Virus record (IMG/VR): IMGVR_UViG_3300000293_000037
DNA from: a virus
Lineage: Duplodnaviria; Heunggongvirae; Uroviricota; Caudoviricetes
Strand: one strand, 5' to 3'
DNA length: 8,868 nucleotides
The stretch's first letter is position 1; the number at the start of each line of letters is the position of its first letter. Of the stretch, positions 2,032 through 8,868 are shown in pieces. The notes under the pieces are model-generated. The model had not been told where the DNA came from. It did not search any database and saw only the letters and a list, made by a program, of their open reading frames with translations. A program made the translations under genes and the position numbers.

Positions 2032-2769
2032 TCAGCGACCAATCACCACAACCTGACCACCGTCCCCTTCGTCTGCCNNNNNNNNNNNNNNNNNNNNNNN
2101 NNNNNNNNNNNNNNNNNNNNNNNNNNNNNNNNNNNNNNNNNNNNNNNNNNNNNNNNNNNNNNNNNNNNNNNNNNNNNNNNGAGAAACCACACGTGATCCC
2201 ACGCGCATTTCACCGTACAGAACAGGCAGAACATTGCCCTGGGCAACCATGTTATCCAGTGACGAGAAATACGTGTTCTGCTTACCGTTATCCGTGCTGG
2301 TCGTTGTTGCGGTACTGGCTTTCGGTGCCAGCATCTGCGCCACACCGCCAAGGATCATACTGGCCCCCGCAGCATACATGCCCGATAAAGCCGCAGCTCC
2401 CAGCCAGCCTGCAGGGTTCCACCACGCCACTGCAATCAGCGCCGCACCCAGCACCGCCTGAAACACACCGCCACTTTTTGCTCCCGCAAGACGCGGAACG
2501 ATGTGGATCACGGCACCATTTTTCAGCGGCTCATTAAGACGGGCTGATAATTCGTTTTCGCCTGCATCACGCCCGGCAATGCGCACCTGATACCAGCCAT
2601 CGCTCAGTTTCTGACGAAACGCCGGGATCTGCATGGCCAGCGCCCGGATGGCTTCGGCCCCTGTTTTCACACGAAGGTCGATGCGGCGGCCAAATCGTTG
2701 CAAATCCCCGTAAAGGCAGATGCGTGCCATGCCCGGTGATGCCAGAGGGAGTGTGTGCGTCGCTGCCAT
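2032..2769 (-). CDS. I: Tail tip assembly protein I, interrupted by a 103-nt run of N
   Basis: ORF track 2032..2769 (-). N-terminus MAATHTLPLASPGMARICLYGDLQRFGRRIDLRV and C-terminus ADEGDGGQVVVIGR match lambda gpI as recalled. ATG at 2769-2767, stop TGA at 2034-2032. The frame is continuous across the N-run only if the gap is really 103 nt. Confidence 0.85.
   Translation of the reverse strand: MAATHTLPLASPGMARICLYGDLQRFGRRIDLRVKTGAEAIRALAMQIPAFRQKLSDGWYQVRIAGRDAGENELSARLNEPLKNGAVIHIVPRLAGAKSGGVFQAVLGAALIAVAWWNPAGWLGAAALSGMYAAGASMILGGVAQMLAPKASTATTTSTDNGKQNTYFSSLDNMVAQGNVLPVLYGEMRVGSRVVSXXXXXXXXXXXXXXXXXXXXXXXXXXXXXXXXXXXADEGDGGQVVVIGR
2078..2180. other. Run of 103 ambiguous bases (assembly gap or masked sequence) inside gene I
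   Basis: Literal n characters at 2078-2180. Confidence 0.99.
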
Positions 2770-4114: not shown

Positions 4115-4455
4115 CAGTGAGTGACCTCTTCAAAGGTACAGTTAAAATCGGTATACATGGCATTATCCGAAATGCTCCACTCCCTGCAGACAACCCGGAC
4201 AGTCCTGTTGTGTTTTGGCGGACGCCACAAAAAAGCACGAATCCCGGCATGACGGGATAAAAAACTGTCCAGCGCGGCACGGGAATATTCATCTGTGACA
4301 CGAAATACCGGTTTAAACGTTTTCAGATCCGCATTCAGACCACCAGCCCGTCGCTGTTCATATCCGTCACCAAACTTTACCGTAATAACTGATGGCTTTC
4401 GTGTCGTCTCCATCCCCTCACGGGGGATCCAGTTAAAAACTTCAGGCTCAGGCAC
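4114..4455 (-). CDS. M: Minor tail protein M; start uncertain (GTG 4455 preferred, ATG 4470 or TTG 4500 possible)
   Basis: ORF track 4114..4500 (-) begins at a TTG. The FNW...KFGDGYEQRRAGGLNADLKT core aligns with lambda gpM (FRW...RFGDGYSQ). GTG at 4455 has a GGAGGA Shine-Dalgarno 7 nt upstream and overlaps the H stop (GTGCCTGA). Lambda M is 109 aa. Confidence 0.85.
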   Translation of the reverse strand: MPEPEVFNWIPREGMETTRKPSVITVKFGDGYEQRRAGGLNADLKTFKPVFRVTDEYSRAALDSFLSRHAGIRAFLWRPPKHNRTVRVVCREWSISDNAMYTDFNCTFEEVTH

Positions 4456-7400
4456 TGTACAATCCTCCATCCCGACGCGATGACTGCATAATTGACACAA
4501 CCCTGCTGTCGATCAGATCCACCAGTCCCCTGGCTGAGCGCGCATCTATCTCGCCATTGCTCCCTTGATTCTGAATGCTGATGTGATACACGGGAGAATA
4601 AACAAACCCCCCGCCACTATTCACATTGCCAATGGCTCTGACCCCAAGAGAGCCGTCCGCTGCCCGTGTCAGTGGCATGATAGCTTCAGGCCCGGCCTCG
4701 CCCATCAGCCCGGCACCTTTCGCAAAAGCAAAATACGTCGGTGTATCCACAATAGTGTTACTGTAAGCACTCAGATTTGCCGATGTGTAAACACCACCTT
4801 TTGCGTTTGCCACCGCCCCCGAAATCCATCCGCCGACCGTACCAAGCCACCCTCCGGCACCGGAGAGTGACTTCAGTCCGTTAACAATGGCCGCATTCAT
4901 CAGAATTTTTGAAACTTCCTGGAGAATTGAACTCCCCCAGTTTCTCCAGTCCACAACATTTCCGGCCAGTGCATCGGAAATATTTGATACCAGTCCGTCC
5001 ATAGTGGAAACGACAGCATCTGCCGCCTGCGAAGCATAATCGGTGGCACTGTCTGCCCAGTTGGTCAGCCCCTCCTGGAGTCCTGCATTCCAGTTATTAC
5101 GTAAAGCATCGGCCTTTGCATAATAATTCTGCTGATCGCTGAGACGCTCTTCCAGATATTTTTTATTCAGTTCTTTCTCCTGTTTCCACAGGGCTTCTTC
5201 AATTTCTCCGGCCTGATACTGTCTCAGCAGCTCGTTATTTTTCTGCTCAAACTCATGCCGGATACTCCACATTTCCTGGAGTCGTTCACGCATCCGTGAG
5301 CCTTCACCATATCCCAGTAACTGCGCGTCGTTAGACGCCCGGGTACTGGCATTACTGTCCGCCAGGCTGCTTTCATACGCAGCAAGCTGCTCACGAATCT
5401 TTTTCTGGTCGATGAGTGCTGCATTCTGCAAAAGCGTTTTTTTCTGCGCTTCTGACAGGGTTGATAATTCGCCCTGACTGACCTGATATTTCATCTTAGC
5501 CAGTTCAGTATTCTGCCCTGCCAGTGCTATTTGTTCTTTTTGCTGTTTAATCAGCCGTTTATAAATATCTTCTGTTTTTTCCGCTTCGGTCTTTTTATGC
5601 GCTTTGGGTTTATTTGCCTGGTTATTTCGCCAGGCATCCAGTGAGTTATTGATATAATTCTGTCTGGCTGTCTGATACGCCTCTCCCACAAAGCCGAGAT
5701 CATCCGCAGCATAACCCAAGCGGGCACGCTCACGGGCTTCCCCCTTCAGGCGGGACAGAGCCAGTTCGCGCTCGCTGTTATTCAGTGCAGTCTGCTGTTT
5801 ATCATCCAGGGTTGCCTGTGGTAGCCGTAACGGTACATTCACCAGCCCCTGTCGCTGCTGAAGTAATTCATTACCGAGCCCGAGAAGGCGATTAAACTCG
5901 GTATGCTGCCCATTCATGATCAACAGGGACTGATACGCTTTGTTTTGTTCCGCGGCCTGTTGACGGATCAACGCCACCCGTCGCTCCTCCAGCCCGGCAA
6001 GTACATCCTGAATGGATTGCGCTTTGCCCTGCATTTGTGTGAGACGGGACTGTTCAACTGCCAGTTGATTTGTTGCTTCTGCAAGCCCTTCTGTGACAGT
6101 TTTTACCGACGTCATGTGGTTAATCATAAAACCGTTATCGGTTGTCCAGCCCGGGTTTGCCAGCACATACTGATAGCCAGCAATTTTTTCCTGTAAGGAT
6201 TTAATCTTACTTTTCTGCTCGTCAATTAACCTGTTTTGCTCATCAAGTGCCTGCCGCGTCTTTTCCTCATTATCTGACGCTTCAGGAAGCGACATTGCCG
6301 ACGTTTTCTGGCGAATTTCGTCGATTGTTGCGGCATACTGGCGTGCAGATTCTCTGGCCTGCTCCTGATTCTGATACATCGTGTACCAGGCCGTCGCCCC
6401 CAGCATGACGAGTCCCGGCACACCACCAACCAACCCCAGCGCACCACTTAACAGACGACTCCCCACTGACGTGACAGTATTCAGCGTTGTCTGTGCCGCT
6501 GTTCTGGCCGCAATATTACGGGTAAGTGACGCCTGAGCAGCTGTCAGCTTCGCTTCTGCTGCGGCCTGCCTTTCGGTACCGCGAGCAGCAACAACCGCCT
6601 GTTGCGCACGATAAACCGCCGCACGCGCCCTGGCGGTTGCTATCTGTGTCCCCCGAAGTTGCGCTTCAGCAAGAGCCACTTCGTTTCTGGCTGCAGTAAT
6701 TAATCCGGCAGTTGCAGATCCAGCAGAAGACGCCATATTGCCAAAATATCGGGCTACCCCGACGGCAACCAGAGCACCGGCAGCGGTTGCCACGGTGTCA
6801 ATATTGCCTGCAAGACCATTCAGCACCCCGGAGAGCGTCTTCGTCACTCCGCTTGCCTCGTTCGCACCACCAACCCAAGCCATAAAGGCGTTTTCAACTT
6901 TGGTTGCAGAGGATGAAACCGTATCAGGCATTGCTGCATATTCATCACGCAACGCCCCAAGCTGACTAATCAGTGCAGGAACAACCTTATCGGCGGTTAG
7001 TTTTCCGTTATCCGCCATGGCCTTCAGATCCTTACGGGCAACGCCCATTCCCGCAGCCAGCGCACGAATAACACGATCACCGCTCTCATTCACCGAGTTA
7101 AACTCTTCACCGCGCAGCACTCCCTGCGCCAGTGCCTGACTGAACTGCGTGATCACCGAACTGGCTTCTGCTGTACTGGCACCGGATAATTTCAGGCCCG
7201 TGGAGATCGCCTCGGTGACTTTCAGTACCTCCTCAGAACTGTAACCATACTCCCGCATGGAAGCTGCAGAACGGGCAAAAAGGCTGGCGTTATCAGAAAA
7301 CGCCGTCCCCGTTCTCTGGCTGATCGCCATTAATTCACGTTGTGATACCTGAAAATCATCACTGGACTGTGAGGCCTGCTTCAGACGGGCATTTACTGAA

Positions 7401-7681
7401 TTCCACTCATCGGCGAGAGAAATAAGATGACCGGTAGCAAAAGCCCCGGCAAATGCCCCCGCCATATTCAGTGCCGAAGATTTAGCTGTATTTATCTGAT
7501 CCGTCACTTCTGCCAGTGCACGCCGCATTTCACGGGATGCAGCAGCGGACTGCCGGCCTCCGTTCTGCATGGTACGGTAGTAATCCTGCCCCATACGCGA
7601 AGCCCGGGAGATCTCTGACTGGAATGACCGGGAATTTGCCGAGATTTTAATAATCAGTTCACGTAATGTCGCCACACTCAT
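4448..7681 (-). CDS. H: Tail tape measure protein, 1077 aa
   Basis: ORF track 4448..7681 (-). Long Ala/Gln/Glu/Lys-rich, largely coiled-coil-like protein. The C-terminal region (GGVYTSANLSAYSNTIVDTPTYFAFAKGAGLMGEAGPEAIMPLTRAADGSLGVRA) resembles the lambda gpH C-terminal domain as recalled. Sits immediately downstream of the G/G-T chaperone pair and upstream of M-L-K-I-J. Confidence 0.93.
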   Translation of the reverse strand: MSVATLRELIIKISANSRSFQSEISRASRMGQDYYRTMQNGGRQSAAASREMRRALAEVTDQINTAKSSALNMAGAFAGAFATGHLISLADEWNSVNARLKQASQSSDDFQVSQRELMAISQRTGTAFSDNASLFARSAASMREYGYSSEEVLKVTEAISTGLKLSGASTAEASSVITQFSQALAQGVLRGEEFNSVNESGDRVIRALAAGMGVARKDLKAMADNGKLTADKVVPALISQLGALRDEYAAMPDTVSSSATKVENAFMAWVGGANEASGVTKTLSGVLNGLAGNIDTVATAAGALVAVGVARYFGNMASSAGSATAGLITAARNEVALAEAQLRGTQIATARARAAVYRAQQAVVAARGTERQAAAEAKLTAAQASLTRNIAARTAAQTTLNTVTSVGSRLLSGALGLVGGVPGLVMLGATAWYTMYQNQEQARESARQYAATIDEIRQKTSAMSLPEASDNEEKTRQALDEQNRLIDEQKSKIKSLQEKIAGYQYVLANPGWTTDNGFMINHMTSVKTVTEGLAEATNQLAVEQSRLTQMQGKAQSIQDVLAGLEERRVALIRQQAAEQNKAYQSLLIMNGQHTEFNRLLGLGNELLQQRQGLVNVPLRLPQATLDDKQQTALNNSERELALSRLKGEARERARLGYAADDLGFVGEAYQTARQNYINNSLDAWRNNQANKPKAHKKTEAEKTEDIYKRLIKQQKEQIALAGQNTELAKMKYQVSQGELSTLSEAQKKTLLQNAALIDQKKIREQLAAYESSLADSNASTRASNDAQLLGYGEGSRMRERLQEMWSIRHEFEQKNNELLRQYQAGEIEEALWKQEKELNKKYLEERLSDQQNYYAKADALRNNWNAGLQEGLTNWADSATDYASQAADAVVSTMDGLVSNISDALAGNVVDWRNWGSSILQEVSKILMNAAIVNGLKSLSGAGGWLGTVGGWISGAVANAKGGVYTSANLSAYSNTIVDTPTYFAFAKGAGLMGEAGPEAIMPLTRAADGSLGVRAIGNVNSGGGFVYSPVYHISIQNQGSNGEIDARSARGLVDLIDSRVVSIMQSSRRDGGLYSA

Positions 7682-7691
7682 TCTCCGGACG

Positions 7692-7713
7692 AAAAAAAAC
7701 CGCCGAAGCGGTT
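7692..7713 (-). terminator. Intergenic hairpin plus U-tract between T and H: minus-strand AACCGC-TTCG-GCGGTT followed by T8
   Basis: Plus strand 7692-7713 is A8-CCGCCGAAGCGGTT. On the minus strand this is a 6-bp stem with a UUCG tetraloop followed by eight U. It sits in the 40-nt spacer between the T stop (7722) and the H ATG (7681). Function is inference. Confidence 0.3.
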
Positions 7714-7721
7714 ATGTTGAC

Positions 7722-8395
7722 TCACTGAGACACTATTAAAAGCGCTTTTTCCAGTCCGGCAAATGGATCTGATACGCCTTCTGTCTGCTCCTTCTCCCAC
7801 TGAAGAAGCGCATCATTCAGTGGCACTCTGACCCCCTGCGCACCGTAAACAGCCGAAACAATCTGGGCAGCCCGGATATCAGCCCGTTCGTCCCCCAGCG
7901 GGCTGAACCTGTCAAATTCTGCCCACATCATGATTTCTGATGCGGACATTTCCCGGCGTAACTCTGACAATGTGCGCCCCATCCTGAGCGCCAGCATCAT
8001 CAGAAAACGCATCCCCGGAAGCGCTACTTTTTTTTAACCTCGCCGGCATCACTGATCAGTTCCAGAGACTGCCGAAGAAGCCGCGCATGCACCGGGCCAT
8101 ACACGGCAATCACCTGTTCACGATCATCCTCTGAAAATACAGGTTGCAGTCCGGTATCACACAGAACATCAATGAACAGTTCAACATCTGCCTCCAGATT
8201 TCGGCGGGCGCGCTCCGCAACGGATAACGGTGTCTCATTATCTTTTGCTTTAACGATCTCCTGCCAGCGCAACCAGGCTTCTGCAGAAGGTTCCCGTAAT
8301 ACAACCGTTGCCCCTTCCCATTCAGGCACATCAACAGTTTTATGGCGAAACCCCGACATCGTTGCCAGTGCCAGATTGCGGATATTTTTAGTCAT
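7722..8395 (-). CDS. G-T: Tail assembly chaperone G-T fusion made by programmed -1 ribosomal frameshift (G frame 8395..8027, T frame 8033..7722)
   Basis: The G frame ends ...GAG GTT AAA AAA AAG TAG. The -1 frame is open from the A-run (AAA AAA GTA GCG CTT CCG GGG ATG CGT TTT...) and continues as the 96-aa T-like ORF 7722..8012. Position directly upstream of the tape measure gene matches the conserved G/GT arrangement of long-tailed phages. Confidence 0.75.
8024..8395 (-). CDS. G: Tail assembly chaperone G (zero-frame product); start ATG 8395 preferred over ATG 8410
   Basis: ORF track 8024..8410 (-). ATG at 8395 is preceded by GAGGA at 8-nt spacing (AGGATAGATGTGATG); the ATG at 8410 has no Shine-Dalgarno. 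Ends in the slippery A AAA AAG followed by TAG. The call rests on position and architecture, not on recognised sequence similarity to lambda G. Confidence 0.8.
   Translation of the reverse strand: MTKNIRNLALATMSGFRHKTVDVPEWEGATVVLREPSAEAWLRWQEIVKAKDNETPLSVAERARRNLEADVELFIDVLCDTGLQPVFSEDDREQVIAVYGPVHARLLRQSLELISDAGEVKKK
8027..8033 (-). promoter_or_regulatory. Slippery heptamer A AAA AAG for the -1 frameshift between G and T
   Basis: Plus-strand CTTTTTT at 8027-8033 is minus-strand A AAA AAG in the G frame, two codons before the G stop. Part of a T8 run at 8028-8035. Confidence 0.7.
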
Positions 8396-8494
8396 CACAT
8401 CTATCCTCATTAACTGACGGTAACAGTGCAGGAAGTGGAGGTCACCTTGTTAACAGGGCTTGCTGAATCAGAAATCTCGCAGGTATGGGCAGCT

Positions 8495-8868
8495 CTATCT
8501 GCACTGCTCATTAATATACTTCTGGGTTCCTTCCAGTTGTTTTTGCATAGTGATCAGCCTCTCTCTGAGGGTGAAATAATCCCGTTCAGCGGTGTCTGCC
8601 AGTCGGGGGCTGGTTGCATTATCCACGCCGGAGGCGGTGGTGGCTTCACGCACTGACTGACAGACTGCTTTGATGTGCAACCGACGACGACCAGCGGCAA
8701 CATCAGCGCGCAGAGTTTCATTTTCAGCTTTCGCATTGGCTAATTCTCTCGAGTACTTTGCATCGAGTGCAGCAACATCACGCTGATGCTGCTGCATGTC
8801 AGCGATGGTGGCGATCGCCTGCTTCAGCTCACTGACTTTTTTATCACGCTGTTCTTTGTAGGCGATGG
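8495..8868 (-). CDS. Rz: Rz i-spanin (inner-membrane spanin), C-terminal part; 5' end lies beyond the window end
   Basis: ORF track 8495..8797 (-): MQQHQRDVAALDAKYSRELANAKAENETLRADVAAGRRRLHIKAVCQSVREATTASGVDNATSPRLADTAERDYFTLRERLITMQKQLEGTQKYINEQCR matches the lambda Rz C-terminus as recalled. The frame stays open upstream of 8797 to the window edge (IAYKEQRDKKVSELKQAIATIAD-MQQ...), so the true start is outside the window. Confidence 0.9.
   Translation of the reverse strand, partial: IAYKEQRDKKVSELKQAIATIADMQQHQRDVAALDAKYSRELANAKAENETLRADVAAGRRRLHIKAVCQSVREATTASGVDNATSPRLADTAERDYFTLRERLITMQKQLEGTQKYINEQCR
8554..8736 (-). CDS. Rz1: Rz1 o-spanin (outer-membrane lipoprotein), 60 aa, nested in the +1 frame of Rz
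   Basis: ORF track 8554..8736 (-): MRKLKMKLCALMLPLVVVGCTSKQSVSQCVKPPPPPAWIMQPAPDWQTPLNGIISPSERG. Has an LVVVGC lipobox and a proline-rich segment; near-identical to lambda Rz1 as recalled and wholly contained inside Rz. Confidence 0.88.
   Translation of the reverse strand: MRKLKMKLCALMLPLVVVGCTSKQSVSQCVKPPPPPAWIMQPAPDWQTPLNGIISPSERG

Follow-up and report, generated by a model that had tools for sequence, protein, structure and literature searches.

A probable programmed -1 ribosomal frameshift at an A_AAA_AAG heptamer in the G-T tail assembly chaperone locus of a virus sequence related to Escherichia coli phages

INTRODUCTION

The 8,868-nucleotide (nt) stretch of viral DNA in IMG/VR record IMGVR_UViG_3300000293_000037 (Caudoviricetes; the whole stretch is referred to here as the window) carries, directly 5' of the gene for the tail tape measure protein, two overlapping open reading frames (ORFs), the second of which lies in the -1 frame relative to the first. 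The question raised by this locus is whether the two frames are read as separate genes or whether ribosomes join them and, if they do, which signal is used. The layout recalls genes G and T of phage lambda, which likewise stand just before the tape measure gene and in which low-level shifting sets the ratio of G to the G-T fusion (GT) (Levin, Hendrix and Casjens 1993; Xu, Hendrix and Duda 2004, 2013, 2014). G-T frameshifting is widely conserved (Atkins et al. 2016 review) and is textbook recoding, A_AAA_AAG has been reported in E. coli phages, and frameshifting has been measured for a homologue; the slip signal described here is a standard one, already known, and the biology is unchanged by it. 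What is added is an in-frame A_AAG core that is invariant among relatives, an overlap of exactly 7 nt between the two frames, and a downstream hairpin that is suggestive but unproven. With high confidence, we read the feature as a programmed -1 ribosomal frameshift that gives two tail assembly chaperones from one message.

RESULTS AND DISCUSSION

The two frames overlap only in the slippery heptamer

Features are on the minus strand unless stated otherwise. Under standard decoding, the G-type tail assembly chaperone ORF (8024 to 8395) begins at an ATG at 8395, which is preceded at a distance of 8 nt by a GAGGA read from the sequence, and encodes 123 amino acids (aa) before its TAG stop at 8026-8024. 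Its 3' end reads ...GAT GCC GGC GAG GTT AAA AAA AAG TAG. Within it, the slippery heptamer A AAA AAG (8027 to 8033) is in the X_XXY_YYZ register and supplies the last two sense codons of G; its As belong to a run of eight that can be read directly from the sequence (8028 to 8035). The initial annotation placed this heptamer at the end of the G frame, as it is, but two codons before the stop; AAG is in fact the last sense codon and the TAG (8024 to 8026) follows directly, a possible "shifty stop" context.

Immediately 5' of the heptamer, a TAA in the -1 frame (8034 to 8036) closes that frame, whose translation across the region gives RG, a stop, KKVALPGMRF ... SQ, and a second stop. The overlap between the 0 and -1 frames is therefore exactly 7 nt, i.e., the heptamer itself, and because the TAA stands right before the A run, a productive shift is possible only inside the run. 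Past the heptamer, the -1 frame extends through the T domain (7722 to 8027, beginning GTA GCG CTT...) for 101 codons plus a TGA at 7724-7722, and 40 nt separate this stop from the ATG of the tape measure gene at 7681; the earlier estimate of about 100 codons up to the spacer before the tape measure gene was thus accurate. The tape measure gene itself (4448 to 7681; 1077 aa), so named in records that are 97-100% identical, encodes the expected partner of G and G-T. A ribosome that shifts at the heptamer would make a 224-aa G-T fusion with the junction ...AGEVKKK followed by VALPGMRF..., and the peptide across this predicted junction is VKKKVALPGMRF...; frame translations reproduce the coordinates and the junction (EVKKK, then VALPGMRF) that had been proposed.

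The heptamer by itself is not significant: AAAAAAG occurs three times in the window against 1.2 occurrences expected, and 21 of 200 shuffled sequences reach three. Its significance comes from its register, from the 7-nt overlap placed before a Pfam T domain, and from its conservation in relatives. Neither of the other two copies looks like a recoding site. The one at 8836-8842 (minus strand, in the Rz region) is in the register AAA_AAA_G, where AAG is no codon, and the one at 4229-4235 is on the plus strand, antisense to tail genes.

G and T belong to known tail chaperone families

The window G matches a single Pfam family, PF06222 (Phage_TAC_1), over its full length with an E value of 1.6e-57, and the -1 part matches PF06223 (Phage_tail_T; E value of 1.1e-18). 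The corresponding PHROG matches are phrog_344, "tail assembly chaperone," for G, and phrog_337, "tail protein." A further profile, phrog_14766, spans 224 positions, of which positions 1-121 match G and positions 126-220 match the -1 part, suggesting that fused G-T proteins of about 224 aa are already among the annotated phage proteins. At the DNA level, E. coli phages, Evi and phi467 among them, match the window at 97-99% identity, and prophages in complete E. coli genomes match it at 99.9-100%.

Lambda T shares PF06223 with the window T domain, whereas lambda G falls into a different family, PF06894 (Phage_TAC_2), and a BLASTP comparison of lambda G with the window G gave an E value of only 4.8. 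The locus is a G-T system by its architecture and its T domain, with a chaperone from a family other than lambda's. Lambda also differs in its slip site, G GGA AAG, which is followed by five more codons before the stop. The initial annotation had remarked that the heptamer is unlike lambda's and like that of E. coli dnaX. This is correct as to the letters, but it is no peculiarity of the window, since the chaperone belongs to a different family whose commonest site is A_AAA_AAG. Taken together, the window has the features of a tail chaperone G/G-T frameshift: two overlapping ORFs, the second in -1, directly 5' of the tape measure gene; an in-register X_XXY_YYZ sequence inside the overlap; homology to chaperone and T proteins; and a site conserved in relatives. 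The proposal that this is the conserved tail chaperone G-T frameshift is borne out by PF06222 and PF06223, by phrog_14766, by adjacency to the tape measure gene, by recurrence of the heptamer in 28 of 47 related loci, and by a homologue that shifts at 7%.

The slip site is conserved in relatives

A single-protein search of viral contigs returned only loci that were 99-100% identical and was useless for judging conservation. We therefore relied on an alignment-based search of genome contigs, with one genome per species, which gave 50 homologous loci with G identities of 46-69%, from Enterobacter, Serratia, Pectobacterium, Brenneria, Symbiopectobacterium, Morganella, Proteus, Providencia, Yersinia, Kosakonia, Pantoea, and other genera. 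The G and T frames are intact in 47 of the 50, and the slip-site counts are based on these 47.

Every one of the 47 intact loci has, inside the overlap, a 0-frame AAG preceded by A (A_AAG). The full A_AAA_AAG heptamer is present at the homologous position in 28 of them, all from other species, making it the most frequent slip site among PF06222/PF06223 G-T systems; a stop (TAG or TAA) follows directly in 21 loci, eight codons later in 6, and four codons later in 1. The remaining loci carry [A/G]_GCA_AAG and then TAA (9/47), G_GAA_AAG (8/47), A_GAA_AAG (1/47), or G_GTA_AAG (1/47), and in 11 loci without the full heptamer, the stop again stands directly after A_AAG. Codons flanking the heptamer vary freely on both sides. 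The A run itself is 6 to 8 As long in the heptamer-bearing relatives, mostly 6 or 7, and 3 to 4 As long in the 19 other intact loci. AAAAAAGTA does not vary among 17 distinct sequences that align without gaps.

Two groups of relatives depart from the tandem arrangement. One reads CGG or CAG followed by GAA AAG, with the stop five codons later and no perfect tandem site (L083-L085, L089, L095, L097, and L134, the last being HK446). The other reads GCA AAG TAA and retains just the A_AAG tetramer and the adjacent stop (L098, L099, L109, L111, L114-L116, L129, and L130). Members without the tandem site suggest that slippage of a single tRNA beside a stop may be enough.

The same alignment of 17 distinct sequences bears on the point at which ribosomes enter the -1 frame. 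V-[A/K/T]-x-P opens that frame in 16 of the sequences, and F-L-M-x-L-A-L-R is common to all 17 farther on. Before the invariant Met, identity at the first, second, and third codon positions is 0.80, 0.80, and 0.63; past it, the values are 0.78, 0.89, and 0.66. The third position thus varies most, beginning with the first -1 codon. Entry of ribosomes into the -1 frame at the heptamer would be expected to leave such a wobble-variable pattern.

A homologous cassette shifts at 7% in E. coli

The closest experimental parallel comes from Antonov et al. 2013 (PMC3711429), who grouped 41 frameshift genes with similarity to HK97 into a "phage tail assembly chaperone" cluster and tested two cassettes from it in E. 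coli with a GST-MBP reporter. A cassette with A_AAA_AAG_TAG gave 7% frameshifting, with the fusion product seen, and a second one, with G_GGA_AAG, gave 6%. We found the 7% insert exactly in an Stx-converting phage of E. coli O157:H7 whose G belongs to PF06222, and the G-T region of that phage is 63% identical in protein sequence to the window fusion. Stx/O157 lambdoid phages share with the window the PF06222 chaperone, the A_AAA_AAG heptamer with TAG directly after it, and the position before the tape measure gene, and their -1 peptide, VARPEIRFLM, is homologous to VALPGMRFLM in the window. They differ in having 6 rather than 8 As in the run. Because the tested cassette has the same layout (A_AAA_AAG, TAG, and a homologous -1 peptide), this layout has been shown to yield a fusion; by analogy, a low-rate G-T fusion would be expected from the window as well.

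The same heptamer recurs in other tail genes. AAAAAAG is given as the tail gene frameshift site of E. coli phage VT1-Sakai, psiM2, PVL, PV83, ul36, and a Borrelia prophage in the part of Lynch et al. 2012 (PMC3483164) that draws on earlier comparative work, and the tail frameshift site of Paenibacillus larvae phages is likewise annotated as AAAAAAG. We infer that the tested Stx cassette is that of VT1-Sakai itself. In E. coli, A_AAA_AAG ranks with the most shift-prone sequences, owing to the better pairing of the single tRNA-Lys with AAA than with AAG (Atkins et al. 2016). HK97-like phages (HK446, HK75, and HK106) also have a PF06222 chaperone, with about 61% identity, and differ in their slip region, which reads CGG GAA AAG TCT ..., with the stop five codons later, so that G_GAA_AAG stands in place of a perfect tandem site.

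On this basis, most ribosomes would read G to ...E-V-K-K-K and terminate at the TAG, giving the 123-aa G. A small fraction, probably a few percent, would slip back one base with tRNA-Lys on the AAA and AAG of the heptamer or, by an alternative route, with tRNA-Lys on AAG in the P site and the TAG in the A site. Slipped ribosomes would then read GTA GCG CTT ... and produce the 224-aa G-T fusion. If the parallel with lambda holds, the tape measure protein would be bound by the G part, with the T part bringing in the major tail protein, and a low rate of frameshifting would set a high G:GT ratio. The heptamer is apparently the main signal, which the adjacent stop and the predicted downstream hairpin may modulate.

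The likeness to dnaX is confined to the heptamer

The E. coli dnaX site has the same heptamer, A AAA AAG, which the only tRNA-Lys of E. coli decodes, and it is accompanied by a Shine-Dalgarno-like stimulator upstream (in the 9- to 14-nt range) and a stem-loop 3' of the site. About 50% of ribosomes shift there, into an early stop, whereas the shift in the window extends the protein, at a rate that is probably a few percent. Spacings of 9 to 14 nt between a Shine-Dalgarno sequence and the slip site stimulate -1 shifts, and a spacing of 3 nt stimulates +1 shifts (Atkins et al. 2016 review).

A GAGG in the window (8038 to 8041; codons GAG G-TT) had been described as lying 3 nt upstream of the heptamer; the distance is actually 4 nt, with TTAA between. 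The accompanying remark that its spacing differs from that of the dnaX stimulator is correct. At 4 nt, the GAGG falls outside the stimulatory range, no Shine-Dalgarno-like sequence is present 9 to 14 nt 5' of the window heptamer, and relatives show no conserved motif of this kind: 10 of 21 distinct sequences have no Shine-Dalgarno-like 4-mer upstream, and the rest have one at 6 to 9 nt that derives from Asp and Glu codons. The GAGG at 8041-8038 is probably merely coding sequence. A cmscan search of positions 7600-8500 with E values up to 10 found no Rfam frameshift element, only four chance-level matches to unrelated RNAs.

A candidate hairpin lies downstream of the heptamer

The initial annotation had resolved no convincing downstream stem by eye and had singled out the 60 nt 3' of the heptamer for folding. 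Those 60 nt indeed fold no better than shuffled sequences (z score, +0.28), but an 80-nt fold yields a candidate: a long irregular hairpin starting 6 nt 3' of the heptamer (8020-7951), with a core helix at 8005-7962 and an apical GCGCUC/GGGCGC helix at 7991-7974. Its minimum free energy is -31.7 kcal/mol (z score, -2.49; 3 of 200 shuffled sequences are as stable). A separate set of dinucleotide shuffles gave a z score of -2.75, and randomization of synonymous codons with the T protein kept gave -2.36, with 2% of the randomized sequences as stable.

Among 27 distinct sequences with A_AAA_AAG, the same synonymous randomization gives a mean z score of -1.4 to -1.5 at this position, and 37% fall below -2; for nine control windows elsewhere in G and T, the mean is 0.0 to -0.44 and 4-15% fall below -2. 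In some relatives, the hairpins built on this apex are striking, examples being those from Pectobacterium (z score of -6.1 against dinucleotide shuffles) and Symbiopectobacterium (-5.2 against synonymous randomization). The tested Stx cassette, by comparison, is not unusually structured: its downstream 80 nt have a z score of -0.6, versus about -2.5 in the window, and it shifts at 7%.

The hairpin was rejected as a structure conserved throughout the family. When the window structure was imposed on 17 diverse homologues, 61% of the cells were paired, against 60% in shuffled controls, so column-wise covariation was absent, and RNAalifold kept nothing but a 5-bp hairpin, invariant and located about 36 nt past the heptamer. 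Where relatives do have a stem, its base lies anywhere from 1 to 36 nt after the heptamer. The idea that weaker slip sites are offset by stronger hairpins was also rejected, as the 18 loci with such sites show no hairpin enrichment (mean z score, -0.45). Near-identical E. coli relatives offer only 10 variants in this region, too few to inform; a few of these break pairs and none compensates. Our tentative model, which we regard as possible but on balance doubtful, is that within the A_AAA_AAG branch the hairpin is maintained at synonymous sites and acts as a clade-specific 3' modulator of G:GT, while the core shared by the whole family would be "A_AAG plus slow A site" and not the tandem heptamer. 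The folding results make the hairpin a candidate modulator, with a rather low chance of proving to be one, and not an established part of the signal.

Other explanations for the overlapping frames

Several points weigh against programmed ribosomal frameshifting. The product at this exact sequence is argued from sequence and from a homologue; in 100%-identical genomes, the NCBI pipeline lists G and T as separate coding sequences (CDS); 12 nt past the G stop there is an ATG, and separate initiation of T is compatible with the sequence taken alone; transcriptional slippage at the eight-A run could yield an identical protein; and the chaperones may be functionless in this element, where the major tail gene is missing upstream. 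In transcriptional slippage, RNA polymerase would add one A in the run, and the resulting nine-A mRNA would encode the same EVKKKVALPG... fusion, indistinguishable by protein sequence; runs of more than 7 As are listed among the sequences implicated in transcriptional realignment, and in another family the frameshift product rose with the length of the A run (Antonov 2013, PMC3711429). Against this, relatives keep the site with 6 to 7 As, the 19 intact loci with only 3 to 4 As nevertheless have the in-frame A_AAG, and the tested cassette still shifts at 7% with 6 As. All 28 heptamer loci also keep the X_XXY_YYZ register together with the G that ends the site, which counts against slippage because both matter for tRNA re-pairing and not for the polymerase. 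Programmed transcriptional realignment would conserve run length and not register; here, it is the AAG register that is kept throughout. Transcriptional slippage thus cannot be the mechanism of the family; it may make a small added contribution in the window, and as the explanation for this locus, it is very improbable.

We consider it about as improbable, and if anything slightly more so, that T is translated separately from the ATG at 8012 or from the conserved ATG at 8000-7998, possibly by reinitiation after the TAG, with no fusion needed. Such a start would agree with the pipelines that annotate T as its own CDS, and an ATG is available not only 12 nt past the stop but also 27 nt past the heptamer, where it is invariant in 17 relatives. 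However, neither ATG is preceded in the window by a well-spaced Shine-Dalgarno sequence, and the first is absent in several relatives, which have PGTFF, PLTFF, or PDTFF there. Upstream of the invariant ATG, moreover, nine -1 codons are conserved as protein and wobble-variable, and the homologous cassette gave a fusion product. Least probable of all, to the point of being negligible, is a sequencing or assembly error or a pseudogene, in which the true A run would have another length and G and T would be one in-frame or broken gene. Raw public assemblies do hold A-run variants, such as P0001 (EVKKSSAS...) and P0002 (fused, EVKKVALPG...), and the window itself carries a run of Ns and an odd junction. 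Yet, of 80 near-identical viral loci fetched, 64 could be matched by a context pattern, and in 63 of these 64, the heptamer is identical and the run has exactly 8 As; complete genomes match at 99.9-100%, and the two-frame layout is conserved across genera. We accordingly retain programmed ribosomal frameshifting as the best explanation.

The variants in raw-read assemblies were noted in their own right. The near-identical G proteins P0001, P0002, P0003, and P0005, all from public assemblies of raw reads, have altered C termini that match changes in A-run length; P0001 (EVKKSSASGD...) represents 54 member sequences, and in P0002, G and T are fused directly in one frame. Homopolymer errors in the reads are the most likely cause, though some of the runs may derive from RNA.

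Annotation of the locus and integrity of the element

The practical value of this analysis is in annotation, since the G-T fusion goes unlisted in identical E. coli genomes. In one 100%-identical genome, "phage tail assembly chaperone" and "phage tail assembly protein T" are separate CDS, and other best matches are treated likewise. NZ_CP116166.1 (2592-3265) and ON470580.1 (3092-3765), which are 99-100% identical, list G and T as two or three CDS with no ribosomal-slippage join; the 224-aa fusion is consequently absent from the protein sets of those records. The RefSeq record of HK446, unlike the records near-identical to the window, has an annotated joined G-T CDS.

In contrast to the expected position 3' of a complete major tail gene, the G-T cassette of the window is preceded by only about the last 77 nt of that gene, which is present just upstream in phages and genomes that are 97-100% identical. 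The missing gene bears on the integrity of the element or its assembly and not on the identity of the G-T cassette. Adjoining the major tail remnant on the minus strand (context, 8400-8868) is an Rz/Rz1-type lysis pair (Rz stop at 8497-8495; rzpD match of 98-99%), with the terminase, the head genes, and most of the tail tube gene absent between the pair and the remnant. The Rz and tail gene matches overlap by 6 nt (ATACCT) at 8481-8486. Among 5,426 complete E. coli genomes, there is none that spans the junction, which reflects either a defective prophage with a rare microhomology deletion or a chimeric assembly. A run of 103 Ns at 2078-2180, inside a lambda I-like tail gene (ORF 2032-2769, minus strand), indicates that the window comes from a scaffolded or masked assembly.

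Finally, a terminator-like hairpin (7698 to 7713), with a T run extending to about 7688, fills the 40 nt that separate the T stop from the tape measure gene; its letters are AACCGCTTCGGCGGTT, then TTTTTTCGTC. This hairpin may be a partial terminator that lowers expression of the tape measure gene relative to G and T, and a rho-independent terminator is annotated just 5' of the tape measure gene in the HK446 record.

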